This document shows positions 4,262 through 37,574 of a stretch of 37,574 nucleotides of DNA, piece by piece; position 1 is the stretch's first letter, and each line of letters opens with the position of its first letter. Source of the stretch: a virus; the IMG/VR virus record IMGVR_UViG_3300045988_043612, positions 1-37,574 of that record. The stretch is one strand, 5' to 3'. Position numbers and translations under genes: made by a program. The notes beneath the pieces were generated by a model that did not search any database, was not told the origin of the DNA, and saw nothing but the letters and a program-made list of their open reading frames with translations.

Positions 4262-4884
4262 TCGTCCTCCTTCCGGTCCTTAAGATTCTCAATCCCTTTC
4301 GCCTTCCATTCCCGCTTCTTCGCGATCCCCTTAAGCGCGTTGATGTGCCCTGCGGCTTCCGCACTGAGCACTTCCACCTTCAGAGAACCTTCCACCTTCT
4401 CGCCGCCGCTTGTCACGTCCCTGTATTCTCGCAGACCCCTCAGCTTCGAAATGTAGGAAGCGTCGAATTGCCCGACGGTCGCGGACTTGTCCATATCATC
4501 CCGAATCCATTCCCGGATGTTATCGATCTCCTGCATGAACTTCAATGATTCCAAGTCATTGAACTTCTCGTGCATCTCCTTGTACCTTTTCATCCGGTCA
4601 CCGAGATAGCTTCCGTAGGCGCCGATGAATTGCGTGAATCCGAATTCGGTCACCAGTAGCTTCATTTTCTTCGTGTATTCCCGTCCAGCCTGCATCCCTG
4701 ACTTCACATAGTCGAGAATCTCTAGGGGGTGATTCCGGCACCACTGGACGTAGATGTCGAAGACCTCCCGTAGCTGTCCCGGTTCGTCGAATAGTGGTGT
4801 CTTGCCGAAACGTGCGGTATACAGGCTCCACAGTTCATCTCCGGTGTACGGGTCATATAAGTCGTTTAATAATTTATTCGCCAT
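4258..4884 (-). CDS. terS: Putative terminase small subunit (208 aa)
   Basis: Sits immediately upstream of terL and is translationally coupled to it. It is the first gene after the 866-bp non-coding region. The helical N-terminal half is followed by a basic/acidic tail. The assignment rests mainly on position. Confidence 0.6.
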   Translation of the reverse strand: MANKLLNDLYDPYTGDELWSLYTARFGKTPLFDEPGQLREVFDIYVQWCRNHPLEILDYVKSGMQAGREYTKKMKLLVTEFGFTQFIGAYGSYLGDRMKRYKEMHEKFNDLESLKFMQEIDNIREWIRDDMDKSATVGQFDASYISKLRGLREYRDVTSGGEKVEGSLKVEVLSAEAAGHINALKGIAKKREWKAKGIENLKDRKEDE

Positions 4885-4913
4885 AATAGGTTTACGCGTG
4901 GTTAATTAAGCCA

Positions 4914-4921
4914 CAAAGGTA
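4914..4921 (-). promoter_or_regulatory. Candidate -7 box TACCTTTG (TAnnTTTG) upstream of terS
   Basis: The minus strand reads ctcctacctttgtggc about 30 nt upstream of the terS ATG (4884). No good TTTG lies at the expected -33 position. Confidence 0.4.
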
Positions 4922-4963
4922 GGAGAAACAAACGAATATTCCTAGTTCCATCGAACCGAATTA

Positions 4964-5007
4964 GGGGGGTCGCGATTCGCGAGGTCCCGCACCGAAAAGC
5001 ACCCCCC
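4964..5007. other. GC-rich nested hairpin (GGGGGGT ... ACCCCCC enclosing CGCG-att-CGCG) in an AT-rich leader
   Basis: G6 at 4964-4969 pairs with C6 at 5002-5007. An inner 4-5 bp hairpin lies at 4970-4982. No U tract follows on either strand. Confidence 0.5.
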
Positions 5008-5323
5008 ATTTCCTTGCTAGGCTAAGTAAGCATCTGATTCTCAGACACTTGCAAAAATGGCTAGATACAAGATTTTTTACTGCACCCGGTAACTGCCTAT
5101 CGTGCAGACAGTTACAACGATTTGGATAGATAGATGGGGTAGTTCCCTATAACTTAGAGAGAAAACACTGTTTGGTATACATTTTTTACTTCCTTTTCTT
5201 CCTTTTCTTCTGTTTTTTCAGTAATATTCCATCTCAAAGTCTTTGCAAAATAGCATTTTATCTATCCATTCTTAGCTAACTACCTATCAATCAACTACTT
5301 ATATAGGATAGATATAAATATAT

Positions 5324-5372
5324 GATCTATCCTAATTAATGTTAATCAACTAGAAATGAGCGATTTACACAG
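5324..5372. repeat. 49-bp module copy A1 (ATCTATCC-N5-AATGTTAATC.ACT..AAATGAGC.A.TTACA.AG)
   Basis: Hand alignment to 21727-21775 gives 38 of 49 identical positions without gaps. Confidence 0.85.
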
Positions 5373-5389
5373 GATTGTTAAAATACCTT

Positions 5390-5438
5390 CATCTATCTTA
5401 ACTGATATGAAATGACTGATTTTCAGCAAGTTACATAG
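5390..5438. repeat. 49-bp module copy A2 (diverged)
   Basis: Same length. About 32 of 49 positions are identical to 21727-21775. Both are preceded by CCTT and end in TTACATAG. Confidence 0.7.
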
Positions 5439-5670
5439 CCTTATTACCCTTTTCGCTCCCAAGTCATTCTATCCACTATTTCGTGGATTCTCATATACAA
5501 TTTATTCAAAACCTTTGGCATGCCTCCGTATTCTCCGGAACTTGAACAGTTTTGCATAGAATTGTTTTATTAAAATTTTCGCAGCCAAAAATAATTACAG
5601 GCTCAAAAAATAAGCAACCTCTTTTCTCTAGTTTTGAGAAATTCCCGAAGAAACCTCAACGTACACGGAA

Positions 5671-5712
5671 AACTGAAAACGCGAATCCAGTTTTTTAGGC
5701 TGAATCCGCGTT
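5671..5712 (-). terminator. Candidate intrinsic terminator after the 204-aa gene
   Basis: The minus strand reads AACGCG-gatt-CAG-cctaaaaaa-CTG-gatt-CGCGTT followed by TTCAGTTTTCC. The stem is interrupted by a 4x4 internal loop. Confidence 0.45.
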
Positions 5713-5751
5713 AAATGACCCCTTTCGGGCAAACACAATTTAGAAATTATC

Positions 5752-8966: not shown

Positions 8967-9146
8967 TTAGTAGCTCAATGATATCAAGGTCATTCCGCCT
9001 TGCTCCTTCATATACTTTCTAGCCTGTTGGTATGCGGCGTTCCTAGACGTTGCATATATGCACAGACTTTCGATATCGTAATGTCCGTTAATCAATTCTC
9101 TTCTCATGGTTGCCACGAATACGGGTTTCAAAACGTTAGTTCTCAT
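8967..9146 (-). CDS. Small hypothetical protein (59 aa), just below the ORF-track cutoff
   Basis: Hand translation: MRTNVLKPVFVATMRRELINGHYDIESLCIYATSRNAAYQQARKYMKEQGGMTLISLSY. Its ATG (9146) is a similar distance from promoter-cassette copy 1 (TATATTTG box to ATG about 46 nt) as the 100-aa gene is from copy 2 (also about 46 nt). Confidence 0.6.
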   Translation of the reverse strand: MRTNVLKPVFVATMRRELINGHYDIESLCIYATSRNAAYQQARKYMKEQGGMTLISLSY

Positions 9147-9250
9147 AATCCTATGTTTTTAATTGTTACTACTTGTTTAACTTTGATGTGACAAATATAG
9201 GGCAAACTTCCGAATCTTCCAAATTTTGACAAAAGTATTAACGTTGATTA
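9147..9250 (-). promoter_or_regulatory. Promoter cassette copy 1 (-7 TATATTTG, -33 TTTG, palindrome TTTTGTCAAAA, TTAACG-N5-TTAACG)
   Basis: The minus strand reads cgttaatcaacgttaatacTTTTGTCAAAAtTTGgaagattcggaagtttgcccTATATTTGtcacatcaaagttaaacaagtagtaacaattaaa. The -7 box is at 9192-9199 and the palindrome at 9224-9234. The distal TTAAC overlaps the SNF2 stop codon. Confidence 0.75.
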
Positions 9251-10648
9251 ACGAATATACATGGAAACGATCTCTTTGATAGCATCTATTAACTTATTCT
9301 GTGTATCGGACTTCCCTTGTACGGCGGATATCACCCGCTCGTCTATTGTACCCTTAGCGCAAAGATGGTGGATGAACACGGGCTTTGTCTGTCCCTGCCG
9401 CCACAGACGGGCGTTGAACTGTTGGTATAGCTCTAGGTTCCACGTTACACCGAACCAAATGATATTGTTCCCGCCCTTCTGCAAGTTCAAGCCGTGACCC
9501 ACGGAAGCGGGGTGGGCGATGAGCACCTTTATCTTTCCGGCGTTCCAGTCACGCATGATCTGTGTGCCGTCCCCTTTCGAGTCGCCGCCTATGCGAACGG
9601 GCTTCAACTTGGCCAGGGCTTTCTCGATACGCACAGCCTCGTGGCGGAAGTTGTAGGCGATAAGGACCGGAGCACCATTAAGGGATTCCACCATCTCGCA
9701 CAGGGATTCAATCTTTGCCTCGCTTACCTGATGGATGTTACGCTCAGCGTCGTACACCGCACCGCCGGCGAATTGCAGCAGTTTGTTCGACAGTGCAGCA
9801 GCAGACAGCGCCGTGATCTCGGTTTCATCCCCATCGGCGAACATGGAATGTATCTGCTCCTTCTCGAATTCCTTGTACATAGCCGCCTCCTTCGGCGACA
9901 GCGTAACCTTGTCATATATGTAATTCACTTCCGGCATATCCAAGTAGTCAACCGCTTTCATCGAAAGAGTGATGTCGGCGATCTTATCGGATAATACTTG
10001 CTCGGTGTTCTCGCGTGGCTTGTAGTTAAATACTATCCCGCCATTCTGAGCACCCGGTTTAAAGTAGTTAGCCCGGTAGTCCGTGATAGACTTCCCTAGG
10101 CGCGCGCCACCGTCTATGACGAACATCTGTGCCCACAGGTCTATAAGACCATTAGGCGCGGGCGTACCTGTCAGACCGATAATGCGGTTGGCATGGCGGC
10201 GTATCTTCTTCATGGCTTTAAAGCGTTCAGAGGCGTGGTTCTTGAATGATGATAGTTCATCCACCACGATGCAGTCGTAAGGGACCTTAACGCCTCCGAA
10301 GTGTTCCAGTAGCCATACTAGGTTATCCCTTCCTATTGTGTAGATATCCGCGTCCGCGTGGGCTGCGGCTACTCTCTGCTTCGGCGTCCCGGCTATCACT
10401 GAGATGCGAAGGTTACGGAGGTGAGACCAGTTTTCGATTTCGTCTCCCCACGTCACTTCCGATACTCGTTTAGGCGCAACGATGAGCACCTTTGTTACTT
10501 CGAAGTACTCGATAAGATCGGCAACCGCCGTTAAGGTGGTCACCGTCTTTCCCAGTCCCATATCGAGGAATAGAGCGCATTCCGGATTATTCTTGATGTG
10601 CTCTACCCCTTGAATTTGGTATTTATGTAATTGATTCCTGTTTAGCAT
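9248..10648 (-). CDS. SNF2/DEAD-like helicase (466 aa)
   Basis: Motif I LDMGLGKTVTT, motif II VVDELSSFKN, and C-terminal helicase motifs HPASVGHGLNLQ and ARLWRQGQ. Confidence 0.9.
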   Translation of the reverse strand: MLNRNQLHKYQIQGVEHIKNNPECALFLDMGLGKTVTTLTAVADLIEYFEVTKVLIVAPKRVSEVTWGDEIENWSHLRNLRISVIAGTPKQRVAAAHADADIYTIGRDNLVWLLEHFGGVKVPYDCIVVDELSSFKNHASERFKAMKKIRRHANRIIGLTGTPAPNGLIDLWAQMFVIDGGARLGKSITDYRANYFKPGAQNGGIVFNYKPRENTEQVLSDKIADITLSMKAVDYLDMPEVNYIYDKVTLSPKEAAMYKEFEKEQIHSMFADGDETEITALSAAALSNKLLQFAGGAVYDAERNIHQVSEAKIESLCEMVESLNGAPVLIAYNFRHEAVRIEKALAKLKPVRIGGDSKGDGTQIMRDWNAGKIKVLIAHPASVGHGLNLQKGGNNIIWFGVTWNLELYQQFNARLWRQGQTKPVFIHHLCAKGTIDERVISAVQGKSDTQNKLIDAIKEIVSMYIR

Positions 10649-12739: not shown

Positions 12740-12952
12740 TTAATAGTTAATACCTGTTGACCCGTAAACTCCGCCATTATAACATCTACTAAGTTTGCCA
12801 TAGTATCCGTACTTTCGATAATTATCGGTGTCTTTTTTGAATTCGATCATAGCTTCTTTCTTGTTAGAAGCGTAATAGTGTATTCCGGTATCATTGCCAT
12901 TGCAATCTAAGATTCGGTAAGCGTTCATCTGTTTCTTTTCATTTGTCTTCAT
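12740..12952 (-). CDS. Hypothetical protein (70 aa)
   Basis: Minus-strand ORF; Tyr/Gly/Asn-rich. Confidence 0.6.
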   Translation of the reverse strand: MKTNEKKQMNAYRILDCNGNDTGIHYYASNKKEAMIEFKKDTDNYRKYGYYGKLSRCYNGGVYGSTGINY

Positions 12953-12987
12953 AATCTTATATTTTTAATTGGTTTATTGATTAATAA

Positions 12988-13290
12988 TTATTTAGCATTA
13001 AGAATTTGATTTGCTTTTTCTTTTCCAAAGTAATTAACCGCTTTTGCGTAGTTACTTACATGACCTTTAGAGATTTGAGGATAATTACGCATTACCCCGC
13101 TCAGCACTGACTGTATTTCTTTTTCTCCGATGTTTTTTCTTCTAGCCCAAGACAGGGTAGCTTCGTTTAAAACTCTTATCATGAACCATCTTAAGGTATA
13201 AAAGTTATCAACTTTCACATTCTCGTTGAAAAAAGAGATAACCATTTCTCTATTGCTACTTAATACGGTATTTACTTCCTCTGCGGTCAT
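12988..13290 (-). CDS. Hypothetical protein (100 aa), first gene after promoter cassette 2
   Basis: Minus-strand ORF starting directly after the conserved leader. Confidence 0.7.
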   Translation of the reverse strand: MTAEEVNTVLSSNREMVISFFNENVKVDNFYTLRWFMIRVLNEATLSWARRKNIGEKEIQSVLSGVMRNYPQISKGHVSNYAKAVNYFGKEKANQILNAK

Positions 13291-13400
13291 GGCTTTTATT
13301 ATTTAATTGTTACTACTTGTTTAACTTTGATGTGACAAATATACGGCGAATTTCCGAAACTTCCAAATTTTGACAAAAGTATTAACGTTGTTTAACGATA
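13291..13400 (-). promoter_or_regulatory. Promoter cassette copy 2
   Basis: Near-identical to copy 1 over about 95 bp. The -7 box TATATTTG is at 13336-13343 and the palindrome TTTTGTCAAAA at 13368-13378. Confidence 0.75.
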
Positions 13401-13403
13401 CAA

Positions 13404-13453
13404 TAAAAAACCACCCTAGCAGAACCTTCTCGGCGGTGCTAGGGTGGAAAAAA
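13404..13453 (-). terminator. Strong bidirectional intrinsic terminator
   Basis: A perfect 11-bp stem CCACCCTAGCA / TGCTAGGGTGG (13411-13447) is flanked by A6 on the left and A6 on the right, giving a T6 run after the hairpin on either strand. Confidence 0.85.
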
Positions 13454-13589
13454 TATGAAAAAGGCATTCGACAAAATTAGTTTCATGCCGGGAACCGCTG
13501 TCCCCCTTGTTGTATGAAGTGAACTTACATAACTAAAAGTCTTTTAAATGATTACAATTATATCTCAATGGTGATGCAAAGATAACCCT

Positions 13590-15968
13590 TTATTCGAAAT
13601 CTGCCTCACAGTCGCGCACGAATGTTGTTTGTTTCCCATAACATTTCACATACCTCTGTCCCACGGGCTTGAATCCCAACCGTTTCAGAATGTTCGACAT
13701 TTGGCGGGCACGCGCCGAATTGAAATCGGTACGCTTGTTTCCGAGGCAGTCTACCCATATCTCGAACGTGCAGAATGAATCCCTTATCTCCGTTCCTTCC
13801 GCATATACTCCGGTACGGTCTGCAAAATCCCTACGATCCGCGTAGCAGAGATCAAACCAGTCAGCCGGGAACTTCCGGTTAACGTAGTCATAGACTAAAC
13901 CTTCCATTGGGTCACGTTCGGTGTATTCTTCGCGCTTTCCCACGGCAATGGCTTCCGCTTCCGGAGATAAGATAAGCGATTCGCCTGAACGATACAGTTC
14001 CACGGCTTCCGCCCACAACTGATCCACAATCTCAGCGAATTCGTCTTCCCGTTTCGGATTCGTTATGATGTCTGCGGCGGGAGTCCATTCGACCGCCACG
14101 GGAAAGAAACGGCGGTTTCCTGTTGGGTCTTTTAGGAAGTCGTCTTGGTTCGTAGACCCGAAGAACACACATTGCCTTTTGTGTGTTTTGATGCGCTTGG
14201 CGTATGCAGCCCGATACGTATCCTCAGTCTTTGAGATGAAGTTCTTCATCACCTCGATGTCGGTTTTCTTAAGGGCGGATAGCTCAGCAAGCTCCACCAG
14301 CCACGACTTTTGGATAGCCTCGTACGCGTTTTTCCCCTCCATCGATACGAGTGAGTCATTGAACCATCCTTTAGATAGTTTCTGAATCAGCGTTGACTTT
14401 CCCGCGCCCTGCTGCGATACCATAATAAACGCCGTATCGAATTTGGTTCCCGGCCTAAACATGCGGGCAACCGCGGCAACCATCATTTTCCGGAACGCCT
14501 CGCTGACATAGATGTTATCCTCCGACCCCATATAGGTAGTCATAAATTTATCCAGTCTAGGTTCGAAATCCCATTCCAGTGAGTTAAGATAATCCTTTAT
14601 CGGATGAAATGCATTATCAAGCGCCACCTTCTCGATAACGGCGTTCATCTTGTCCTTGTTATATATTTTATGCAGCCTTTCGATACGGGTGGATATGATG
14701 GCTACGCCGGTATCGTCTAGCAGGTCGCCGCGCTTTTTAGTCTTATCGAAGTACGGTGTGCGGGTATAAACCACCACGTCTTGAAAAAGGTCGTAGGCTA
14801 TCAACTTGTTAAGCAGCGGGTCTGATTTAAACGCATTCTCAAAGTTAACCGTCGTAACGGTCTTGTTGCCTTTCGAATCTATGTCCCATTCTATTTCCTC
14901 TTCATCCGCCACCTCAGCTTTTGCCTCATCCGGAATCTCTTCGAAGTCGCTGAGGTAGTCTTCTACCTTCACCATCTCGTGTACTACGTCCTCGTCTGCT
15001 TGCATTAACTTCACCATCTCAGCCTCACTCTCCTTCTTTCCGAGATGCCCATACAGGTGAACGCGCACCAAGTCATAAGCGTTGTATGTGTGTCCGTCTC
15101 CTATCGGGTCGGTGGAATGGTGGGAATACGCAAACATGTTATCATACACTACCATCCCGGCGGCGGATGTTCCACCTTTATATGTGTAGCGGTCGTTACC
15201 TTCATCCTCGTAAACATCGGACAAGTATTTTTCAATAGCTCCCTGAATGGTGTAGACGCGGCAAAACGCACCGATCATTCCCGGTTTAGTCGTGGGGTCT
15301 GCCGAAGCCTTCACCTGTCCACGCACTTCCGCATCTTCGGAGTCAGCGAAAGCCCACAGGCGCACATCTTGCCACGCTTCACCGTCTCCGTAGAGGCTGA
15401 GAATATAGTCAACGTCCAAAGGTTCTCCCTTCTGAGTCTCAAAGTAGAAAGGTTGGTCAGACGAAAGGGTAGCCCAAAACATTAGACGTTCCGCCTGGAA
15501 TGTGGTAGTATCAAAAAGTTCGATGCCCATCACCTCGGCGACTTTACGGGAAGCGGCTTCATACTCCTCGCGCGATTTGATTTCCCTGTTTAACGGGATG
15601 GTAAGACGGTAACGGCGTTTTCCCGGTCTGTCCGAACGTGTGCCATAGATAGCAGCCGCACAATCGAACTTCATCGAGAAATCGAAGAAGAAATCGTCTG
15701 TACCGAAGTCTACGTCTAAAGTGATCAGCGAACGGGAAGTAACGGCATTCTTGGTGCGGCGACCTCCGGAAAGCGTTCCGCCTACGAAGCCACCCTTGTC
15801 TTTGCGGATAGCCTTTTCTGTCTTTGCCAGTAGGTCGTACTCCCGCGTGGTCTCGGAGTCGCGTTTAGGCGTTCCGAGAATCTCCACAAGTTCGTCCCAC
15901 GTATATGACTTCCTTTTCCAATTCGTTGAACGAGCACCACCACCTACTGAGATATTGTATTTTTCCAT
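13590..15968 (-). CDS. Bifunctional primase-polymerase (AEP) / SF3 (VirE/D5-like) helicase (792 aa)
   Basis: The N-terminal part has AEP-like motifs LITLDVDF (DxD), YSHHSTD (sxH) and AYDLVRV. The C-terminal part has a P-loop VSQQGAGKSTL and Walker-B-like WLVELAE. Confidence 0.85.
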   Translation of the reverse strand: MEKYNISVGGGARSTNWKRKSYTWDELVEILGTPKRDSETTREYDLLAKTEKAIRKDKGGFVGGTLSGGRRTKNAVTSRSLITLDVDFGTDDFFFDFSMKFDCAAAIYGTRSDRPGKRRYRLTIPLNREIKSREEYEAASRKVAEVMGIELFDTTTFQAERLMFWATLSSDQPFYFETQKGEPLDVDYILSLYGDGEAWQDVRLWAFADSEDAEVRGQVKASADPTTKPGMIGAFCRVYTIQGAIEKYLSDVYEDEGNDRYTYKGGTSAAGMVVYDNMFAYSHHSTDPIGDGHTYNAYDLVRVHLYGHLGKKESEAEMVKLMQADEDVVHEMVKVEDYLSDFEEIPDEAKAEVADEEEIEWDIDSKGNKTVTTVNFENAFKSDPLLNKLIAYDLFQDVVVYTRTPYFDKTKKRGDLLDDTGVAIISTRIERLHKIYNKDKMNAVIEKVALDNAFHPIKDYLNSLEWDFEPRLDKFMTTYMGSEDNIYVSEAFRKMMVAAVARMFRPGTKFDTAFIMVSQQGAGKSTLIQKLSKGWFNDSLVSMEGKNAYEAIQKSWLVELAELSALKKTDIEVMKNFISKTEDTYRAAYAKRIKTHKRQCVFFGSTNQDDFLKDPTGNRRFFPVAVEWTPAADIITNPKREDEFAEIVDQLWAEAVELYRSGESLILSPEAEAIAVGKREEYTERDPMEGLVYDYVNRKFPADWFDLCYADRRDFADRTGVYAEGTEIRDSFCTFEIWVDCLGNKRTDFNSARARQMSNILKRLGFKPVGQRYVKCYGKQTTFVRDCEADFE

Positions 15969-15977
15969 TTCTGTAAA

Positions 15978-17987
15978 TTATTTCTTGTAAAAGTAACTTT
16001 CAAATCCTTCCGCGTTCAATGGTATGTCGAAGACCTTTGCCCATTCCGGTAAGATACACATAGCGGTACACACATCATCCAGTGATTCGCCGCCATCTTC
16101 CAATACTTCGTCGATCAATTCATCATGAACGTGCCCCACGATTCCGGAGTCGCCGGGTCGCAAAGATAATACGTTTTTCAATGCGGATGCTAGCAGGTCG
16201 CGCGAAACTGCTTGGATTAAATTCTCCGTCAGCTTTCCGCCGTATGTGTCCAATTCGCACCAAGACCCCGCCGGGCGGCCTTTATCCGCCGTTCCTGCCA
16301 CTCCGTAATAACAGATAGCCTCTACGTCTTTGCTGTCACCATTGGCATACCGGATGGTCTTATGCTTAATCGAGGCGAAAGGGTAGTGCAATGATCTTCC
16401 GGAAGGTAGTCGCATGGCCAACGTGTTGAACTGAGGAATCCAGTAAAAGGTGCAGATGGTTCTTCCGCCGATTACAACCGGAACTTCCCGTTTCGCCATG
16501 ATTGCCCGTTTCGCTGAGTTTTCCAGTTCGCGCCACAACTTCACGATATTTGGTGAAGCGTCCCGCCATCGAAGGATAATACCTTTAATCTCATCCTCCG
16601 GAATAGCTCCTTTCTTGTCCATCGTCTTGATAGCACCCACCCATCCGCCATACCCTAGGGCTAGCTCTGTTACCTTTCCCTGCTGTCGGTATGGTGAGTG
16701 CTTGTCAATGCTAGCCTCGTCCAGTCCGAAGGTACGGGCGGCGGAAGTTATATAGATGTCACCGCCTCGACGGAATGTGTCGATACGCCATTTCTCATCA
16801 GCTAGGCAAGCGATTACGCGGGCTTCGATGGCTGAGAAGTCTGCTACCTTGAACTTGTACCCCTTGCGGGCAATGAATGCGGTACGGAGAAGCTGAGACA
16901 GCAAAGAAGGGATGTTATCATACATTAGAATGAGATCATCCAGTCCTAGGTTCTTCACGTCCTCGCGGGCTGCTTCTAATTCGGCGTCTGTCTCGAAATA
17001 ACTTTTAGTAAGGTTTTGCATCTGCACCATGCGTCCCGCCCAACGTCCGGTACGGTTTGCGCCATAGAAACGGTATAATCCCTTCACTGTGCCATCTTTG
17101 CATACGCAATCTAACATCGCACCGAACTTCGCTACGGATGTCTTGTAGGCGATCTTCCGAGCTGCCAGGACACGTGTAACGTCTTCATTATCGCACTCCT
17201 TGATTATCCCGTCTATCGTATCTTTGTTGATAGAGTCGAACTGCTTTCCGGTCATCGCGAATATGAAATCGTTTATCTGCTTGGATGACTTAAGAGACGC
17301 GATACCGTACTTTTCGCGTACCTTTTCGTTTAAGACATCCATGTAGTTATCAAAGATAGTCTTTGCCTTCGAAGCCAAATGAATGTCTATCCGGCAGCCT
17401 CTATCGTTGATGGCTTGGTCAATAGCATAGTTTTCAACCTCAGAGGCGGGAAACTCGATATGTCTTAGCTTAGCTTCGATTTCACGTTCCGAAAGAATGT
17501 CATATTTCAGATACTTCTTGAAATCTTCCCATTTTTCCGGGTATTCTTCCGGGTAAATGCGCTTTCCACCTTTCTGAGGAATACAGAACAACTTAATAAG
17601 GTTCAGACCTGTATCTAGCTTTCCGTCAGTCAGCTTCATTGCCTGTGACACCTTTCCCAACGATTCGGGAAATCCTGCATACAGGGACAGCGTAGCAGTA
17701 CATCTGAATTTGCTAGCGGGTATATCGTAGCCATATGCACGCAAGCAAAGACGCTCAAACGTAGCGTTGTGGGCATATATAAGGGTATCCGGCTGTTGAA
17801 TGAGGCGGAAGAAGTCGTGGCAATCGTCATATTGCGTTAGGTCTATGCACTGGAACGGTCCATCATCAATTGCGTAACCTATCAGAAGGATTTCGAAATC
17901 CTCTGATTCTACATACCTATACATTCCACCTTTCTTGATGTCCACGTCTGAGTATGTTTCGAAGTCTATAAATATCTTTTTCATCAT
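15978..17987 (-). CDS. Family A DNA polymerase with 3'-5' exonuclease domain (669 aa)
   Basis: Exo I FIDFETYS, Exo II YAHNATFE, Exo III KYLKYDIL. Pol motif A VADFSAIEARV, motif B RQQGKVTELALGYGG, motif C GHVHDELI. Confidence 0.95.
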   Translation of the reverse strand: MMKKIFIDFETYSDVDIKKGGMYRYVESEDFEILLIGYAIDDGPFQCIDLTQYDDCHDFFRLIQQPDTLIYAHNATFERLCLRAYGYDIPASKFRCTATLSLYAGFPESLGKVSQAMKLTDGKLDTGLNLIKLFCIPQKGGKRIYPEEYPEKWEDFKKYLKYDILSEREIEAKLRHIEFPASEVENYAIDQAINDRGCRIDIHLASKAKTIFDNYMDVLNEKVREKYGIASLKSSKQINDFIFAMTGKQFDSINKDTIDGIIKECDNEDVTRVLAARKIAYKTSVAKFGAMLDCVCKDGTVKGLYRFYGANRTGRWAGRMVQMQNLTKSYFETDAELEAAREDVKNLGLDDLILMYDNIPSLLSQLLRTAFIARKGYKFKVADFSAIEARVIACLADEKWRIDTFRRGGDIYITSAARTFGLDEASIDKHSPYRQQGKVTELALGYGGWVGAIKTMDKKGAIPEDEIKGIILRWRDASPNIVKLWRELENSAKRAIMAKREVPVVIGGRTICTFYWIPQFNTLAMRLPSGRSLHYPFASIKHKTIRYANGDSKDVEAICYYGVAGTADKGRPAGSWCELDTYGGKLTENLIQAVSRDLLASALKNVLSLRPGDSGIVGHVHDELIDEVLEDGGESLDDVCTAMCILPEWAKVFDIPLNAEGFESYFYKK

Positions 17988-18813: not shown

Positions 18814-19992
18814 ACCTTCTATATCGAAGTCGCTTGCAGTATCCCGCTCGTATTCCTTTCCGGGATGGCTGTCCGGGACTAGTTTAGGCGCTCCGGGCTG
18901 AGATTTCACATACTCGCCTATCTCAGCAGCGAATACTTTCTTTCCCATTAGCTTTTCCAGGTCCGTGATACCTTTCAGTGAGATGTTCAGTACTTCGTCC
19001 TCTAGGTAGGTATTTAGGAGCTTGTCACGCACTTTATCCGGGTCAATGATCTTCCGGGCACTTCGTCCTTCAACTAACTTGTAACCGTCCCATTTCTTGC
19101 CCTTCATGGCTTCGGTGTAGGCGTATTGGTTGATGGATTCAAGCCACGACTTGTATCTGTCGATCTTGCCGATCATCTCAACTATTTCCTCATCCGTCAT
19201 TATCAGCGTATCGGGGTGATCTTCGAAGTCTTTGATAATCTCGTTCTTCTGCGCCCGGCAAGTCGCTTTAACGGGACAAAACTGACACCACGATCCCACT
19301 ACCTGCTCACCCTTTCCTTCGTAGGCTAGCTTAGCTTTCGGTCTTAACACTTTCTCAGCCCAATCGAGTAAATCCCTTGCATCCATCTCGATTGTCTCAA
19401 AATGCTTCAATCTAGGCTGCGCTACGGACATTCGAATACGCTTCACCTTTGGGCCGCCGAACTTGGCTAATACCCCTAAAGCGTACATTTTGAACTGCGG
19501 GCTTTCCGCCGGGACCTTTACACCTTTTCCGTACTTTAGGTCAATGATGTGCACTATGTGTTCGGATATTAAGGAAACGTCAGCGCTTCCGAAAGATTCA
19601 GGTGCGTATTTGGAGATGTCCAACTTTTCCTCTAGGTACGTAGCGACCGAACCACCGAAAGGTCCTTTTTGCATCTCATAAAATTCGCCTGTCACAAAAT
19701 TAACGTAGTGGCTGATAGCCTCCTTCATTTCCTCGGAATAGTACTTGTTTGAGGCGATATTCTCCGGAACGGGTAATTCATCGCATTCGGGGTAGAACGT
19801 TCCGTATATCCAACTTTTCAATGCGTATTCAGCCAATTCGTGGGCTGTTGTGCCTTCTTCCGCGTATTCGCTCGTCTTGCTTCCTGCTGCGTCGGCCAGG
19901 CGGGCAGACGGCGTGCAATTAAGCCATCTTTCAGAAGAGGAAGGGGACAGTATCGCGTGTCCCCTTTCTGAATGGTTTATTACTTTTTGCAT
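18811..19992 (-). CDS. PD-(D/E)XK nuclease, DUF2800/Cas4-like (393 aa)
   Basis: N-terminal HAILSPSSSERWLNCTPS, catalytic-type IIDLKYGKG, and a C-terminal Cys cluster CQFCPVKATC. Confidence 0.85.
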   Translation of the reverse strand: MQKVINHSERGHAILSPSSSERWLNCTPSARLADAAGSKTSEYAEEGTTAHELAEYALKSWIYGTFYPECDELPVPENIASNKYYSEEMKEAISHYVNFVTGEFYEMQKGPFGGSVATYLEEKLDISKYAPESFGSADVSLISEHIVHIIDLKYGKGVKVPAESPQFKMYALGVLAKFGGPKVKRIRMSVAQPRLKHFETIEMDARDLLDWAEKVLRPKAKLAYEGKGEQVVGSWCQFCPVKATCRAQKNEIIKDFEDHPDTLIMTDEEIVEMIGKIDRYKSWLESINQYAYTEAMKGKKWDGYKLVEGRSARKIIDPDKVRDKLLNTYLEDEVLNISLKGITDLEKLMGKKVFAAEIGEYVKSQPGAPKLVPDSHPGKEYERDTASDFDIEG

Positions 19993-20723
19993 AAGTCGTA
20001 GAACTTAGTGTAATCCTGCTTTTTCAGCGTTGAGAAATTAGCGCACCCGCACGCTTCGAAGGCTTCCGCAATCACTTTGCGCTTGTTAGCGGCGATCAAT
20101 TCACGGGCAACGTTACGGAGCATCTCAATCGTGATCTCTTCCTCTTCCGGAGCTTCCTCTTCCGGAGATTCCGGTTCTTCCTGTGGCTTGATGTCTTCTT
20201 GCGGCTTGATATCTTCAGCTTTCTCGGTGGCTTCGTCTTCTTTCTCAGCCTCAGCGATAGCGGATATCAGCAAACCACGTAACTTGGCATTCGTATTCTT
20301 TCCCGGTCTAGTGGTAGGGTCGATCCCAAACGTTTCAAGGGCTTCGAGTAAAACGGTCGTAGGAACGCTCTTCATCTCTTCCTCAGTCATTTTCAAGGCA
20401 TCTTGCACTAATTCAGCGTAATCCTTCGGTCCGTCTTCCGCCTTCTCTTCCTGTGGTTTTTCTATCTCTGCTTTAGCCATTGCGTCAGCGAAATTGGCTA
20501 CCTTCTCAGTCACGATAGGTTCCACCGCGGCGGGCTTACCAATGTTGACCACGCGTCCAGTTTCAAGATCGGTGTACCTCACTCCTGTCCCCAGGGCGGG
20601 TCTGTCGAATGCAGGGATTCCTTCGGCTGCATTATGTTCGTTCGCTAATGCGTGCAGGAAGTCTGATGCACATTTCAATTCACTTCCTCTGCTGTCTCCG
20701 TCAATGCTAATTTCAATTTTCAT
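19980..20723 (-). CDS. Highly acidic hypothetical protein (247 aa) with an EDIKPQ tandem repeat
   Basis: An 18-bp tandem repeat at 20176-20211 encodes EDIKPQEDIKPQ. It is followed by a long Glu/Pro-rich segment. Confidence 0.75.
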   Translation of the reverse strand: MKIEISIDGDSRGSELKCASDFLHALANEHNAAEGIPAFDRPALGTGVRYTDLETGRVVNIGKPAAVEPIVTEKVANFADAMAKAEIEKPQEEKAEDGPKDYAELVQDALKMTEEEMKSVPTTVLLEALETFGIDPTTRPGKNTNAKLRGLLISAIAEAEKEDEATEKAEDIKPQEDIKPQEEPESPEEEAPEEEEITIEMLRNVARELIAANKRKVIAEAFEACGCANFSTLKKQDYTKFYDLCKK

Positions 20724-20727
20724 AATT

Positions 20728-20916
20728 TTACTGTTTTTGATATGTTAAACACTTGTTAATAACTTCGTTTTCGTCTACGCGAATCTTCCCCTGTTGGTTC
20801 TTGTATTCGCTTATGTAACCTTGCCGTATCTTGTAACGGACGGCGTTCTCGGTCAAGCCCATTAGGTGGGCTGCTTCGCTGATTCGTATCAGCTTTGGTT
20901 CTAAATTTCCAGTCAT
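20728..20916 (-). CDS. HTH_17 / excisionase-MerR-like DNA-binding protein (62 aa)
   Basis: LIRISEAAHLMGLTENAVRYKIRQGYISEYKNQQGKIRV fits the winged-HTH pattern of the AlpA/excisionase family. Confidence 0.75.
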   Translation of the reverse strand: MTGNLEPKLIRISEAAHLMGLTENAVRYKIRQGYISEYKNQQGKIRVDENEVINKCLTYQKQ

Positions 20917-20917
20917 A

Positions 20918-21247
20918 TTAAAAATTTTTAGATTTGTGAAACGTACTCAAAAAATCTTTGTACGCCATCTCAACCGCTCCGGCGAATATTGACCTGTACC
21001 GCTCGGCTGTCGGGTAGATGAACTCGCGAATTTTAAATTCAAACTCTTCTCCGCAGTCCTCTAGCGCTAGCTTCTCACGAAACAGTTCCTCAGTTGTCAG
21101 GCGGAGCGGTGAACTAAACAGGTTATACACGTCTGTTGCCTTTAGCTGCGTATTGATATGCAAGCGGGCTTCTTCGTAGTAGAACCGTTCAAGCGCACAA
21201 AGATTAATTTTCTTCTCTCTCATTGCTTCTCGGTTTAATCGTCTCAA
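20918..21247 (-). CDS. Hypothetical protein; start uncertain (TTG at 21247 in the track, first ATG at 21223)
   Basis: This is the first gene downstream of non-coding region B. The frame stays open to 21337 without any ATG. Confidence 0.6.
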   Translation of the reverse strand: MRRLNREAMREKKINLCALERFYYEEARLHINTQLKATDVYNLFSSPLRLTTEELFREKLALEDCGEEFEFKIREFIYPTAERYRSIFAGAVEMAYKDFLSTFHKSKNF

Positions 21248-21323
21248 TCCGTAGGCTGCTCGTATCAGACCTTTCTTGCCGTCTAGGAGGTCGGCGGCAC
21301 GTTTGATTCGTAATTCGATGTTG

Positions 21324-21331
21324 CAAAGATA
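21324..21331 (-). promoter_or_regulatory. Candidate early promoter -7 box TATCTTTG
   Basis: The minus strand reads attaTTGcagattcaaataaaagccgTATCTTTGcaac. A TTG lies 19 nt upstream. Confidence 0.45.
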
Positions 21332-21417
21332 CGGCTTTTATTTGAATCTGCAATAATTTAGGCAAAAGATTTATGGGGATTAACGTTTATTAGTGAATCG
21401 AATGTAAAAATGGGCTT

Positions 21418-21783
21418 GGATAGATGGAATCCCACGTAACTTGCTGAGTATCAGGGGTGATTTTTGAAAGTGGATAGTTTAAAATCTGTTAAATCACTTG
21501 TAAGTTGCTGCAAACCAGTGAGTTAGCTAAAAAGTGGATAGATAGATAGGTGGTTCTCTATAAGTATGGAGGAAAGTGTGTGTTGCGATTGATAAATTAT
21601 AATTACACCCTTATAATACACTACTAAGATTTTCTCCATGTATTATAGTGAAACATCTATCCATCTATCTATATTAAGCTAAATAGCTATAAATGAGACG
21701 ATTCCATGTGAAAGTTAAAAACCCTTCATCTATCCAACAGAATGTTAATCTACTGTAAATGAGCAACTTACATAGATAGATAC
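21418..21783. repeat. Iteron field B: direct-orientation boxes on the left arm, inverted boxes on the right arm, AT-rich palindromic core
   Basis: Left arm: GGATAGATGG 21418-21427, GGATAGTT 21472-21479, GGATAGATAGATAGG 21536-21550. Right arm: ATCTATCCATCTATCTAT 21655-21672, ATCTATCC 21728-21735. Nested inverted repeat 21556-21571 / 21634-21648. AATTATAATT at 21595-21604. Box 2: GTAACTTGCTGA 21436-21447 and GTAAGTTGCTG 21500-21510. Box 3: CTGAGTATCAG 21444-21454. Confidence 0.85.
21727..21775. repeat. 49-bp module copy B1
   Basis: 38 of 49 positions identical to 5324-5372 by hand alignment. Confidence 0.85.
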
Positions 21784-21828
21784 TTGGATACATGAAAGGT
21801 TTGTTAACATGAATTGCTATCTCAGAGA

Positions 21829-22395
21829 TTACAATTCAGTACTAAATTGAACATGAATCGTGCTTTTCGGATTCTGATTGGTGACCGTAGTTCTTATTTT
21901 CGGCTTCCCAATTCTAAAAAAGAGGAACCGTTTCTGCTTAACATGCGAAATAACATCGAGCGTATCCGTAGAACTAAATTCTAATTTAGTGGAATCCGGA
22001 GAAACTACGCCGCTTATTTTGTTCCAGTTATCGTCGTAACTGAATTTATACTGGTTCGGTACGTCCGTTTTCTCTGTTACCACCACCGTATCAACGCGGG
22101 TAACCGTTTCTATAGTGTGTGCCGCCTTAACGTCTCTTAACTTTATACGTAGATCATCTACCTGTTTTGTTAAACGACTGTTAAACAATTCTAGCTCGTC
22201 ACGCTTCAGAGATAATGCTTGGACTGTCTCCGCATCCTTCCCTGCCTTCGTCTTGAACCGTACCGCCTCACTGTTGATAGCCTCGATGTTAGTATCCAGT
22301 CGCTCAATCTCTGCCTTCTGTCGCTCTACCTTATTATATAAGAAGCCTGTTACCGAGATGAGTAACAGGCACGCGATAATTAGATACTTGTTCAT
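21829..22395 (-). CDS. N-terminally anchored coiled-coil protein, spanin-like lysis accessory (188 aa)
   Basis: TM helix YLIIACLLLISVTGFLY is followed by a coiled coil (ERQKAEIERLDTNIEAINSE...). It is the last gene of the holin-amidase cassette and overlaps the amidase gene by 4 nt. Confidence 0.45.
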   Translation of the reverse strand: MNKYLIIACLLLISVTGFLYNKVERQKAEIERLDTNIEAINSEAVRFKTKAGKDAETVQALSLKRDELELFNSRLTKQVDDLRIKLRDVKAAHTIETVTRVDTVVVTEKTDVPNQYKFSYDDNWNKISGVVSPDSTKLEFSSTDTLDVISHVKQKRFLFFRIGKPKIRTTVTNQNPKSTIHVQFSTEL

Positions 22396-22901
22396 GGTGT
22401 TATCACTACGTTTTTAGTGAATGTGCCGTATTCGGCGCGTACATCATAGCAGGGGCACATCTTAATGAATTCGAATGGTTCGACTTCGCCGCTTCCATTC
22501 TTGTCCGGTGACGTATCCCTGTGACCCAGTAGCTCCACGATCGGGTAGCGTTTACATATGTCGTTAATCAATTCGATAAGAGCCGCCTTTTGTTCCGGTG
22601 TGCGGGTATCCTTTGCTTTCCCCGCCCTGTCAAGCCCTCCTACGTAGCAGATACCGATAGAGTGACGGTTATATGACTCCTTGCTGAACCCTTTCGTATT
22701 GCAGTGAGCGCCTACCGCCGTTTCGTTCCTGCCCTTCTCGATTGTTCCATCCAGGCGAATGACATAGTGGTAGCCTATTCCGTTGAATCCGCGCTGTTTG
22801 TGCATCGCGTCAATCTCTTTAGCTCCGATATCCTGCCCTTCTCTAGTGGCGCTACAATGGATAATTATAGCGTCCACCTTGTTACTGTTGTTTACCATCA
22901 C
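22392..22901 (-). CDS. N-acetylmuramoyl-L-alanine amidase (Amidase_2/PGRP-type endolysin, 169 aa)
   Basis: IIIHCSATREG ... GYHYVIRLDGTIEKGR ... GAHC ... ELLGHRD ... CPCYDV: zinc-amidase signature residues in the canonical order. Confidence 0.9.
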   Translation of the reverse strand: MMVNNSNKVDAIIIHCSATREGQDIGAKEIDAMHKQRGFNGIGYHYVIRLDGTIEKGRNETAVGAHCNTKGFSKESYNRHSIGICYVGGLDRAGKAKDTRTPEQKAALIELINDICKRYPIVELLGHRDTSPDKNGSGEVEPFEFIKMCPCYDVRAEYGTFTKNVVITP

Positions 22902-35101: not shown

Positions 35102-37574
35102 TACTTATTGATTATTGCGTCGCCGTGACCGTTAGAACACATACATACGTCACCTGTGAATACACTCCCCATCACCGCGTCACCTTTCAGAATAACGCCC
35201 GCGCCTTTAGTAATCGTTCTAGATATTACAGAATTGTCGTACATCCGAACCTTCGTACCTTCTATCCAAACATTAGACACGCCGTAGGGAGCTATGATTC
35301 TCGGCTGTGGTACGAATTCCAGTACCAGCCTAGAATTGGCTATCTCCGATGGAGTAATCGCAGCCGATGGGTCTTTCTGAATAATAGCAGCAAGTAAAGC
35401 CATCTTAGCACTGGCAAGTGATTCTCCTAAATGGAATTTAGTTGCTGCGTCTAGCACCCTAATATACCTTGAAAATCCCGATGCCGATGATATACTAGAT
35501 GTTGGGGAAACATTTATAGGACGTTTAAGTCTTATAGTGCTTCCGGATGTTGCTTTAATTTCCTCGTAGGTTTTACCTGCGTCTGCTTGTCCGCCTCCGG
35601 CTGTTCCCTGTTCCCAATAATCCACGCTTAACAGAATGTCTTCCGGGCTAGTACGGTCTAGTTCGTTAACTATGTATCTACGCTTCTTGAATGCTCGAAC
35701 GTACTTAACGTTTGCTAACGGGATGTAGGACTCATCTATGAGCGCCCCCGCAGCCTCTGCACTGGCGGCCTTTTTCAGCACCAAACCCACATATTTAGCA
35801 TGCGCAGGAACCGTGAAAGACGTCGCCCATACACCGCTAGTACTTAATATTCGCTTGTTCTCATCCATCCACCCGGCATATATGAAATGCCCGGATGCAA
35901 CCGATAACGTTCCTCCGGCTTCTACCGGAATGGCTTCCTTAAATTCAAAGTGTCTTTCTTGGTTAGTTAAGTTCTTCCCGGCTTCCCAAGTTTGTTGAGG
36001 TACCATTGTATTTTCACCACGTTCCCACACATTAACATCCAACAGTCTATTAACATAAGGATCACCGATTAGCTGAACATCTCCACGAACCGTGCACCCC
36101 GCACCCACGTAGGCAGATCCTGTGATCTCCGGAACGTTAGAGTAATTATAATAACGCAAAGACAAGCCAAGTGCTATGAAGTCCGAGACGTTTAATCTAG
36201 ACGTATCGGCTCTTCTAAACTGCATCACGGCATACTGGTAGGTGTTTTCGATAGATGCGGGATTTGCCACCGCTCTCCGGACAATGAAGGATTCGTCTAA
36301 ATATACAATCGCGTCTAGTACGTAACCGGACGGCATGGTTGGTAAAGACAAGCTTGCGGTTGAAACGGGCTTATAGCTTCTGACAACTGCCGCAGAAGTT
36401 ACTTTAGTCTCTTCATAGGGCACACCTAAGTTACTTCCCGCCTCATACGCACCTTGCTCCACGATGCTTCCGTCTAAAGGAAGAAAATCAATGCCCGCAC
36501 CCAAGACGGACCCTGCTGCTAGGTTCTCCGGTCTACTGATTAATCCGGCAATCGCCGTGCCCGCACCAATAGCCGCATACTCACCTTGTTTGTGAGAACT
36601 CCACATATCGAAGTTATTCCCAGCTTTCGCTCCTAAGTGGTCGCTAGCGTAGGAGAAATCTATGTCCTCGTACACATTCCCATTATGGATGTTATCCGTG
36701 AATATGGCTTTCGGCACAATGCATCTACGGAGTACAAGGTTTCCCTTAGCAGCCAAAGCATCGTTGTAAGTAGTATTGTCTACCCGTAACAGGGGACAAT
36801 CATAAGCGGAGATATAGGTATCCCTAGTTGCTGCGGTACGGTGCGAATCGGGCAGATACTTAGTATATTCCAGCCGTTCTACATTCCGGAATGTACCATA
36901 AGGTTTATACTCCGGTCTATCCGTCTTTGTGTACATGGTAGTATCGTACATACTACCCGCCAAGAATCGCAACTGTGCGGCATTCAATCCAAAGTTGTCA
37001 GTTTCCGCAATGAAAGACGAATTTACCATCACGTATTCACCCGATGCCGATTCCGGTCTAATGTCCGTTAGTACAGAACCGCTAATATGTCCTAGTATCT
37101 TAGCTCCTGTAGCCAACAAATCAGTCGGGGTCATTGCAGTTCCGTTAATCTTGTTGATATGCAACATAAATTGCTTATATACCGGATGTTCTATTTTAGT
37201 CAGTCCCGAAGGTATCGCTTTAGATTCTCCCGAATACACCGCTGTTTCACCTTCGGTGTATGCCCATAGAATTCTACCGGAGTATCCCGTTGGAAGATAC
37301 ACGTATGTATTCAATCCACATCTTATAACCGCATCCGTACTTCGACAAAGGTTTGTCTCTCCGGTTTGAATTACAGATGATGAAAAAGCTGTTCCTCTCG
37401 GTGCAGTGGATAAGTACCCTCCTTGCTCGAAAGGGAACGCTGTTGCCGTAGTTCTCGGACCACAAAGAACGTCCATTGATACCCCGATGAACGAATCTTT
37501 GACAAACATGTTGTTCTTGGTATCTGCTGCGAAGCACCGGATACTTACGCTTCCGGGTATCAACGTGTTACCGC
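35101..37574 (-). CDS. Tail fibre / receptor-binding protein 2, 3' part; the full gene is 910 aa once joined to 378-120 across the junction
   Basis: It contains four roughly 115-aa modules, each opening with an (F/W)E(Q/R)G motif: FEQGGY, VEQGAY, WERGEN, WEQGTA. They lie at about nt 37437-37069, 36486-36139, 36042-35689 and 35631-35299. The central YEDIDFSYASDHLG motif is shared with fibre 1. The C-terminal DNSVI/GDAVM repeats are beta-helix-like. Confidence 0.7.
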   Translation of the reverse strand, partial: GNTLIPGSVSIRCFAADTKNNMFVKDSFIGVSMDVLCGPRTTATAFPFEQGGYLSTAPRGTAFSSSVIQTGETNLCRSTDAVIRCGLNTYVYLPTGYSGRILWAYTEGETAVYSGESKAIPSGLTKIEHPVYKQFMLHINKINGTAMTPTDLLATGAKILGHISGSVLTDIRPESASGEYVMVNSSFIAETDNFGLNAAQLRFLAGSMYDTTMYTKTDRPEYKPYGTFRNVERLEYTKYLPDSHRTAATRDTYISAYDCPLLRVDNTTYNDALAAKGNLVLRRCIVPKAIFTDNIHNGNVYEDIDFSYASDHLGAKAGNNFDMWSSHKQGEYAAIGAGTAIAGLISRPENLAAGSVLGAGIDFLPLDGSIVEQGAYEAGSNLGVPYEETKVTSAAVVRSYKPVSTASLSLPTMPSGYVLDAIVYLDESFIVRRAVANPASIENTYQYAVMQFRRADTSRLNVSDFIALGLSLRYYNYSNVPEITGSAYVGAGCTVRGDVQLIGDPYVNRLLDVNVWERGENTMVPQQTWEAGKNLTNQERHFEFKEAIPVEAGGTLSVASGHFIYAGWMDENKRILSTSGVWATSFTVPAHAKYVGLVLKKAASAEAAGALIDESYIPLANVKYVRAFKKRRYIVNELDRTSPEDILLSVDYWEQGTAGGGQADAGKTYEEIKATSGSTIRLKRPINVSPTSSISSASGFSRYIRVLDAATKFHLGESLASAKMALLAAIIQKDPSAAITPSEIANSRLVLEFVPQPRIIAPYGVSNVWIEGTKVRMYDNSVISRTITKGAGVILKGDAVMGSVFTGDVCMCSNGHGDAIINK
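37456..37574. repeat. Right copy of the 119-bp terminal overlap (identical to 1-119)
   Basis: Same string as 1-119. It lies inside a coding frame that continues seamlessly at position 120. Confidence 0.97.

Follow-up and report, generated by a model that had tools for sequence, protein, structure and literature searches.

Two matched iteron fields in the genome of a Bacteroides siphophage as a candidate replication origin of SaPI/P4 type

The genome IMGVR_UViG_3300045988_043612 belongs to a Bacteroides thetaiotaomicron siphophage of the ARB25/SJC/BTxxxPx group (closest match BT401P1, 95.7%), and between its last late gene and its first early gene lies an intergenic gap, here named region B (Table 1), which raises the question of what such a stretch does for the phage. 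The window analysed is the whole record of 37,574 nucleotides. It is a complete, circularly assembled genome whose ends share an identical overlap of 119 bp (1-119, 37456-37574), giving the circle of 37,455 bp that had been assumed in an earlier reading made from the letters alone (the sequence-only reading). That reading described 21248-21828 as a stretch free of open reading frames (ORFs) of 60 aa or more, in which short boxes in opposed orientation surround an AT-rich core, as in a replication origin. The ORF list agreed with the first of these statements, with the extent of the gap revised to begin at 21224, because relatives annotate the first early gene as a protein of 101 aa (306 nt) with its ATG at 21223. 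The answer favoured here, to which about an even chance is given, is that region B is one of two matched iteron fields acting as a replication origin similar to those of Staphylococcus aureus pathogenicity islands (SaPIs) and of phage P4, or that the two fields represent an origin and its partner site.

The boxes, inverted repeats and palindrome quoted in the sequence-only reading were all found where it had placed them. Exact copies of the box GGATAGAT number eight in the 37.5-kb window, and all eight fall in two intergenic regions, B and a second one named region A, that make up 3.9% of the sequence (naive probability of this occurring by chance, ~5e-12). With one mismatch allowed, nine boxes were identified in region B, with forward copies at 21418, 21472, 21536 and 21540 on the left, reverse copies at 21655, 21663 and 21728 on the right, and two forward copies on the far right at 21774 and 21786, the latter being GGATAGAT in most relatives. 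A second box type, GTAA[C/G]TTGCT, was found four times in the window, each time within regions A and B. The dyad symmetry claimed for the box arms was recovered by a repeat search (27-nt arms, 85% complementary) and by BLAST self-matches in reverse orientation, and the AT-rich core between the inner boxes was likewise confirmed, its A+T content exceeding the 53% of the whole window. When the duplex stability of 100-bp segments of the window was compared, the segment 21592-21691 ranked third among the least stable.

The arrangement of opposed short boxes around an AT-rich centre can thus be regarded as real, conserved and non-random, but the part of the sequence-only reading that likened the boxes to binding sites of the bacterial initiator DnaA did not hold. 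According to that proposal the boxes would be degenerate DnaA boxes (CTATCCACT compared to TTATCCACA) that recruit the DnaA of the Bacteroides host, making the origin dependent on it, and two 7/9 matches speak for it (21469-21477 and 21533-21541, with the string AGTGGATAG at 21469 and 21533). However, a search for TTATCCACA with up to two mismatches gave 123 matches in the window compared to 108 +/- 10 expected, with three in region B where approximately two are expected. Furthermore, the CCAC part ('GTGG') of the boxes varies among relatives, only GGATAG being conserved, and sister lineages use GCATWGAT, CTGTGCAG or ACTGTTCC, none of which resembles a DnaA box. With no enrichment, no conservation of the additional bases and unrelated boxes in other lineages, the DnaA reading is largely refuted, and a host-DnaA-dependent origin is scarcely credible.

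The sequence-only reading had missed the existence of a paralogous twin of region B. This twin, region A, is situated in the gap 4885-5751 upstream of terS and has the same overall layout as region B. Its boxes (eight with up to one mismatch allowed) were found at 5059, 5124, 5128 and 5306 on the plus strand and at 5260, 5325, 5391 and 5467 on the minus strand, among them a head-to-head pair, GGATAGAT-N11-ATCTATCC, at 5306-5332. This pair lies within 5257-5356, which has the lowest duplex stability of all 100-bp segments of the window. Alignment of A with B in direct orientation gave a local score of 57, compared to 20.5 +/- 2.3 for shuffled sequences.

Comparison with related phages showed how this pair is kept. 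In 53 records of related phages a counterpart of the block 21320-21828 was found, 68-99% identical and almost fixed in length (509-510 nt), and in an alignment of 19 sequences the early promoter, the GGATAG boxes, the second box type and the core motif at 21574-21608 were nearly invariant, with variation in the spacers. BF1-2 and IMG/VR relatives, whose proteins are approximately 50-85% identical to those of the window, possess a matching architecture at both positions with the box GCAT[A/T]GAT, and 10 of the 12 genome-wide copies of GCATAGAT in BF1-2 are located in A and B. In BT16, seven of nine copies of GGATAGGT are in A and B, with none in the fields of ARB25 or BT03. More distant Bacteroidales phages were found via homology to the primase-helicase of the window phage; of these, EMB1 has CTGTGCA boxes (10/12 copies in two gaps), BV283P1 has ACTGTTC boxes (8/10 copies in two gaps) and BK687P4 has an A+T-rich block common to both fields. 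Inner-box spacing, as read from box positions, is approximately 96-112 bp in several lineages. The sub-variants of clade 4 were also compared in order to identify the reader of the boxes, but they do not represent a clean switch of specificity, GCATAGAT and GCATTGAT being mixed within single fields.

Within a genome, the similarity between A and B was significant in all seven genomes compared, with E values of 5e-10 to 1e-77 in five and of approximately 1e-7 in ARB25 and BT16; for example, the matching stretch was 114 nt long in the window phage (71%), 133 nt in BF1-2 (89%), 256 nt in BV283P1 (85%) and 203 nt in BK687P4 (87%). Fields from different lineages cannot be aligned with each other, the promoter block of B being the only part that can, and the A and B of any one genome are closer to each other than to their positional counterparts elsewhere. 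As judged from these alignments, A and B are evolving in concert across the family. That the two remain matched while lineages drift apart points to a single trans-acting, lineage-specific reader. The deposited record of BV283P1 contains a run of N at 16477-16570 inside its region-A field, where the field repeats probably broke the assembly.

A number of DNA-level roles other than replication could be imagined for such a pair, namely recognition by TerS (a pac site), a partition or centromere-like site, a recombination site or the fixed remnant of a mobile inverted repeat, but these are considered unlikely. Some pac and parS sites do consist of repeated boxes in both orientations, and region A adjoins terS. 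For the published cluster to which the window phage belongs, PhageTerm gave no defined ends, which suggests headful packaging. A second pac site 16 kb away beside the early genes would, however, have no rationale, and the annotation shows no ParA/ParB, integrase or transposase. An origin as a miniature inverted-repeat transposable element was rejected on the grounds that deep lineages, including those with proteins only ~40% identical, have the pair at the same two positions.

The most suitable candidate for the reader of the boxes is the VapE-like primase-helicase, which is encoded in the early gene block starting just downstream of region B. Residues 371-713 of this protein match the cryo-electron microscopy chain of SaPI1 Rep1 (PDB 7PDS) with an E value of 5.2e-71. 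To say that a known type of initiator gene was lacking was therefore wrong, although the gene is not adjacent to region B, field B being situated 5.3 kb upstream and field A 8.1 kb downstream of it. The C-terminal domain of the protein was found to be its fastest-evolving part. Identity to the window protein over the primase, helicase and C-terminal domains is 92, 95 and 85% in ARB25, 82, 79 and 61% in BT16, 71, 67 and 48% in BF1-2, and 43, 46 and 14% in EMB1, respectively, and a homologue search with the C-terminal fragment alone returned two proteins only. An AlphaFold2 (AF2) model of residues 630-792 has a beta-alpha-alpha-alpha-beta-beta topology with a confidence score (predicted local distance difference test, pLDDT) of approximately 90. 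The predicted third (recognition) helix spans residues 751-763; its R753, Q756 and N759 are shared by the three GGATAGAT clades, and the GCATWGAT clade has K, E and G in their place. From these observations we infer that the primase-helicase is the reader of the boxes.

Support for this comes from systems in which helicases of this type act as initiators. The Rep proteins of SaPIs are self-loading helicases that are also initiators by means of a C-terminal winged helix, their origins have an AT-rich centre surrounded by 6-12 short iterons, no fewer than two per side and with the two sides in opposite directions, and in SaPI5 Pri and Rep are fused (PMC9371898). The helicase core of the window protein is homologous to Rep1, its primase and helicase are fused as in SaPI5, the iteron numbers of B (nine) and A (eight) within one mismatch of GGATAGAT fall in the SaPI range, and the forward boxes at 21418, 21472 and 21536 oppose the reverse boxes at 21655, 21663 and 21728 around the core; specificity also varies between relatives. 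There are differences as well: the SaPI origin lies immediately 3' of rep and the window field 5.3 kb from the gene, the window genome has two matched fields with 8-bp boxes at wider spacing, and its phage is a virulent Bacteroidota phage, not a satellite of a Gram-positive host.

A further case is Staphylococcus phage vB_SauS_phi2, whose VirE-family primase-helicase is homologous over its full length (38% identity, 98% of the protein covered). Immediately beyond the 3' end of the gene (4900-5171 of the locus), at least nine TGATGCAAC-type boxes were identified in both orientations, and all seven exact TGATGCAAC copies of the 7.3-kb locus around the gene are in that field, which from its sequence looks like a SaPI-type origin in a Staphylococcus phage. 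It is similar to the window fields in having boxes (9-10 bp) in both orientations within an intergenic gap of 66% A+T, and genes for VRR-NUC and SNF2 proteins follow as they do in the window; it differs in that a single field was seen, adjoining the gene.

Two fields per genome are known from other systems. In phage P4, ori and crr are two iteron fields kilobases apart with a common short iteron, and both are bound by the alpha primase-helicase, which has a C-terminal DNA-binding domain. The likeness to the window is one of layout, with two fields kilobases apart sharing an iteron and a primase-helicase as the candidate reader, and it is incomplete, as crr is built of direct repeats and the window fields of boxes in both orientations. 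In phage SPP1, G38P binds oriL and oriR, each of which has iterons beside an A+T-rich unwinding element (PMC5737612). The SPP1 genome thus has two discrete sites for one initiator, as is proposed for A and B in the window, but G38P is unrelated and binds the origin so as to recruit a helicase that is a separate protein; furthermore, oriL is inside a gene and the SPP1 boxes do not form a dyad.

On the origin reading, the primase-helicase would recognize the 8-bp GGATAGAT boxes through its variable, winged-helix-like C-terminal domain. As the boxes are opposed across an A+T-rich core of approximately 100 bp, two helicase assemblies would load in opposite orientation and melt the core, after which the N-terminal primase domain would prime, and PolA and the gp2.5-like single-stranded DNA-binding protein (SSB) would extend in both directions. 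Replication would in this way start in region B with the melting of its core. Region A would be either a second origin, as with SPP1 oriL and oriR, or a cis-acting partner, as with P4 crr.

Several observations weigh against this reading. The field lies away from the helicase gene, unlike those of SaPIs and of the Staphylococcus phage, which follow the gene immediately on its 3' side, and the gap 3' of the helicase gene of the window (13291-13589) contains a terminator hairpin only, no box family being found there. The boxes of region B are spaced at 54-65 bp over approximately 380 bp, which is looser than in SaPI origins. The core is only moderately A+T-rich, and no box is present in 12936-13035, the segment that ranks second among the least stable of the window. 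The assignment of the C-terminal domain as a winged helix comes from predicted topology alone; a Foldseek search of the model against PDB gave nothing significant (best E value 0.5, the top weak matches being winged-helix proteins), and rapid evolution of a C-terminal tail often has trivial causes. Cumulative GC skew, which the sequence-only reading had put forward as a check, was calculated and gave a monotonic and thus uninformative curve, because all genes are on one strand (the minus strand carries every gene of the window), and it lends the origin no support. Lastly, both fields are just upstream of two major promoters in a block of rigid length, and a transcriptional role fits this equally well.

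This last point brings in the main rival, the 'master regulatory region' that the sequence-only reading had offered as its own alternative, which is a possible explanation though a doubtful one. Here, A and B would be paired regulatory arrays at which a phage DNA-binding protein (the 62-aa HTH_17 protein, the 101-aa protein, the 247-aa protein or non-homologous counterparts) acts on the early promoter at B and on the late terS promoter at A. By the same tentative logic, an early product would switch transcription from the early to the late genes; alternatively, the arrays would keep the two transcription units insulated from each other. The operators OL and OR of phage lambda are an example of two paralogous operator regions with one specificity that differs between related phages. 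The position of B directly upstream of the early promoter and of A upstream of the terS promoter agrees with such a role, as do the unity of promoter and field as one block of rigid length, the small genes of DNA-binding type (HTH_17) adjoining B and the lineage-specific nature of the early genes, which the boxes share; paired operators would also show matched evolution of A and B.

The promoter consensus for Bacteroides is TTTG/TAnnTTTG. In addition to the -7 box of the early promoter (Table 1), a -33-like ATTG is present at 21351-21354, 19 nt upstream, and the surrounding 21321-21370 is almost invariant and is the sole part of B that can be aligned with clade 4 and BK687P4. The conserved motif ATTAACGTTTATTAG further upstream is also kept where the iteron fields cannot be aligned, in BF1-2 and, as ATTAAGGTTTATTAGC, in EMB1 (~3769-3784, record L062), and may be a host-factor or UP-like site. 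Between the early promoter and the first gene, the leader sequence has no conservation across clades, and the equivalent gap of BT03 (17051-17895) is 846 bp long, the extra ~240 bp being in this promoter-to-gene leader and not in the iteron field. A match of the sigma-70 promoter scan in the core (TTGATA-17-TATAAT) was set aside, as the Bacteroides consensus differs and the -10-like hexamer is not conserved.

The boxes are, however, not placed as operators of the lambda type would be. The nearest box of region B is 87 bp from the -7 box and the others are up to 470 bp upstream of the early promoter, without overlap, and those of region A are 140-550 bp from the terS -7 box; the lambda operators, by comparison, overlap their promoters and do not surround a meltable core. 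No second promoter consensus was recognized inside the field on reading the sequence, and promoter control needs no dyad around an easily melted core of 100 bp.

The adjoining genes were examined as readers. The recognition helix of the HTH_17 (excisionase-like) protein is nearly unchanged between two box types (TENAVRYKIRQG compared to TENAVRYRVKQG), which counts against this candidate alone, and no homologue of the protein was detectable in EMB1 and BV283P1, both of which keep their fields. The co-variation of HTH_17 with the boxes and the promoter overlap that a regulatory region would lead one to expect were thus not observed, and the HTH_17 protein fits less well as the reader than the primase-helicase does. 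The 101-aa protein had no matches in any family or homology search made. Its gene and that of the HTH_17 protein are separate here (20728-21223) but form one 166-aa fusion in BF1-2 (8998-9498), which suggests that the two proteins act together. The 247-aa early protein (19980-20723) has an acidic, low-complexity middle and evolves very fast, with 34-60% identity where its neighbouring genes show 62-90%. It was tried as a hidden initiator and rejected, there being no Pfam, NCBIfam or PDB sequence match and a poor AF2 model (pLDDT 65), for which Foldseek gave nothing significant beyond a faint helix-extended-helix hint in this low-confidence model.

A further explanation, in which region B would encode a structured non-coding RNA (ncRNA) or an RNA-level element such as a terminator or regulator, is regarded as very unlikely. 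Both strands do fold better than shuffled sequences (z = -4.6 for minus and -6.4 for plus), but these strong scores on both strands are due to the dyad. The field also contains a long sense-strand hairpin, formed by box R2 and the box at 21786, which may end late transcripts, although its stem extension is not conserved outside the clade of the window and hairpin extensions in general are not conserved between clades. No Rfam match (at gathering thresholds) and no tRNA or tmRNA match was found. The fold of the 19 sequences by RNAalifold retained only 32 pairs, with an energy of -15.8 kcal/mol and a covariation term of -0.93, and the surviving pairs were formed by the invariant boxes with one another. 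Covarying structure, which the sequence-only reading had named as evidence for an ncRNA gene, was therefore looked for and not found. Additionally, the better fold is that of the plus strand for B (19 G-U pairs compared to 7) but that of the minus strand for its paralogue A (23 compared to 5), neither strand being favoured in both, and an 8-mer occurring eight to nine times per field in both orientations is the pattern of a binding site and not that of a helix.

Table 1. Features of regions A and B and of associated genes in the window (coordinates are those of the 37,574-nucleotide record).
Feature	Position	Strand	Basis or remark
Region B, whole intergenic gap	21224-21828 (605 bp)	.	ORF list; relatives' annotation of first early gene
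Early promoter, Bacteroides-type -7 box TATCTTTG	21324-21331	-	read from sequence, conserved
Conserved motif ATTAACGTTTATTAG	21379-21393	.	~50 bp upstream of early -7 box
Box L1, GGATAGAT (quoted string GGATAGATGG at 21418)	21418-21425	+	left arm
Second box type, GTAACTTGCTG	21436-21446	+	GTAA[CG]TTGCT count
Box L2, GGATAGTT	21472-21479	+	left arm; GGATAG invariant in 19-sequence alignment
Second box type, GTAAGTTGCTG	21500-21510	+	repeat search, motif count
Box L3, GGATAGATAGATAGG, overlapping forward boxes, inner left	21536-21550	+	
A+T-rich core, proposed unwinding element	21551-21654 (104 bp)	.	69% A+T
Nested inverted repeat in core	21556-21571 / 21634-21648		
Near-invariant core motif AAAGTGTGTGTTGCGATTGATAAATTATAATTACAC	21574-21608		
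Perfect palindrome AATTATAATT in core	21595-21604		
Box R3, ATCTATCCATCTATCTAT, reverse boxes, inner right	21655-21672	-	
Long sense-strand hairpin (boxes R2 and 21786)	21715-21808	-	folding z = -4.0
Box R2, ATCTATCC	21728-21735	-	
Second box type, reverse, AGCAACTTAC	21762-21771	-	repeat search, motif count
Two outer forward boxes, AGATAGAT (21774) and GGATACAT (21786)	21774-21793	+	
DUF6549 protein, last late gene	21829-22395 (stop at 21829)	-	Pfam; adjoins region B
Amidase	22392-22901	-	after structural genes
62-aa HTH_17/excisionase-like protein, rival box-binding candidate	20728-20916	-	family scans
Primase-helicase, 792 aa, VapE-like, proposed initiator	13590-15968	-	Pfam VapE-like, E 1.4e-75; PHROG DNA helicase/primase families
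C-terminal domain of primase-helicase (residues 714-792), proposed box reader	13593-13829	-	fastest-evolving part, predicted topology
Region A, paralogous twin of B upstream of terS	~5040-5480	.	box search, alignment to B
terS promoter, -7 box TACCTTTG	4914-4921	-	
terS	4258-4884	-	followed by terL and structural genes along transcription direction

The gene order around the two fields was established from the annotated relative BT03 and from family scans of the window proteins (Table 1). After region B, in the direction of transcription, the genes for the 101-aa protein, the 62-aa HTH_17 protein and the 247-aa protein are followed by those for a DUF2800 exonuclease, a gp2.5/Enc34-type SSB, PolA and the 792-aa primase-helicase. 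Beyond this are small genes, VRR-NUC, an SNF2 helicase, further small genes, the gap with region A and terS. The gap 3' of the primase-helicase gene contains a hairpin with a perfect 11-bp stem (13411-13447) flanked by A and T runs, together with two minus-strand -7 boxes of Bacteroides type (TATCTTTG at 13577-13584 and TATATTTG at 13336-13343), and is likely to be a boundary between early and middle transcription.

Other elements were noted in and around region A. A terminator-like hairpin with a 13-bp stem and a 9-nt loop, followed by UUUUCAGUUUUCC, was found by folding on the minus strand at 5665-5712; a terminator scan of region A found none, the 9-nt loop placing this hairpin just outside the criteria of the scan. 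The hairpin is located at the end of the early/middle gene block, so that field A has a terminator on one side and the late promoter on the other. In its core, field A has a long pyrimidine tract (5185-5235) with CTT/CTTTT repeats on the plus strand that has no counterpart in the core of B. Between field A and the terS promoter is a G/C-rich hairpin-like element, GGGGGGTCGCGATTCGCGAGGTCCCGCACCGAAAAGCACCCCCC, at 4955-5010, which could relate to packaging or transcription.

Iteron origins read by Rep-type helicases are already known. What appears to be new is their occurrence in virulent gut Bacteroidota phages, their placement away from the gene and, most of all, the conserved two-site layout that evolves concertedly with lineage-specific boxes; no description of these cis-acting elements was found in the literature searched on ARB25 and on Bacteroides phage origins. 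A bolder proposal, rather improbable at present, is that A and B are an obligate matched pair, bridged by the primase-helicase or another lineage-specific reader, which brackets the late operon and couples the firing of replication to the early-to-late switch, with combinations of box and reader constituting replicon 'specificity groups' (of incompatibility or immunity) among gut Bacteroidales phages.

The human gut harbours ARB25-like phages and their relatives in abundance, and these serve as model phages of Bacteroides. Should regions A and B be regulatory, the arrays would still mark control points of the early and late programmes. If the origin reading is true, a 792-aa protein annotated as a 'hypothetical protein' or 'DNA helicase' would become a replication initiator, and a field together with one gene would offer a compact candidate replicon for Bacteroides vectors or phage engineering. 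The lineage-specific boxes would then be a simple sequence marker of replication specificity, which may bear on co-infection, recombination and the design of phage cocktails, and origins of SaPI type would be extended from Gram-positive satellites to virulent Bacteroidota phages, in a two-site layout that evolves in concert.

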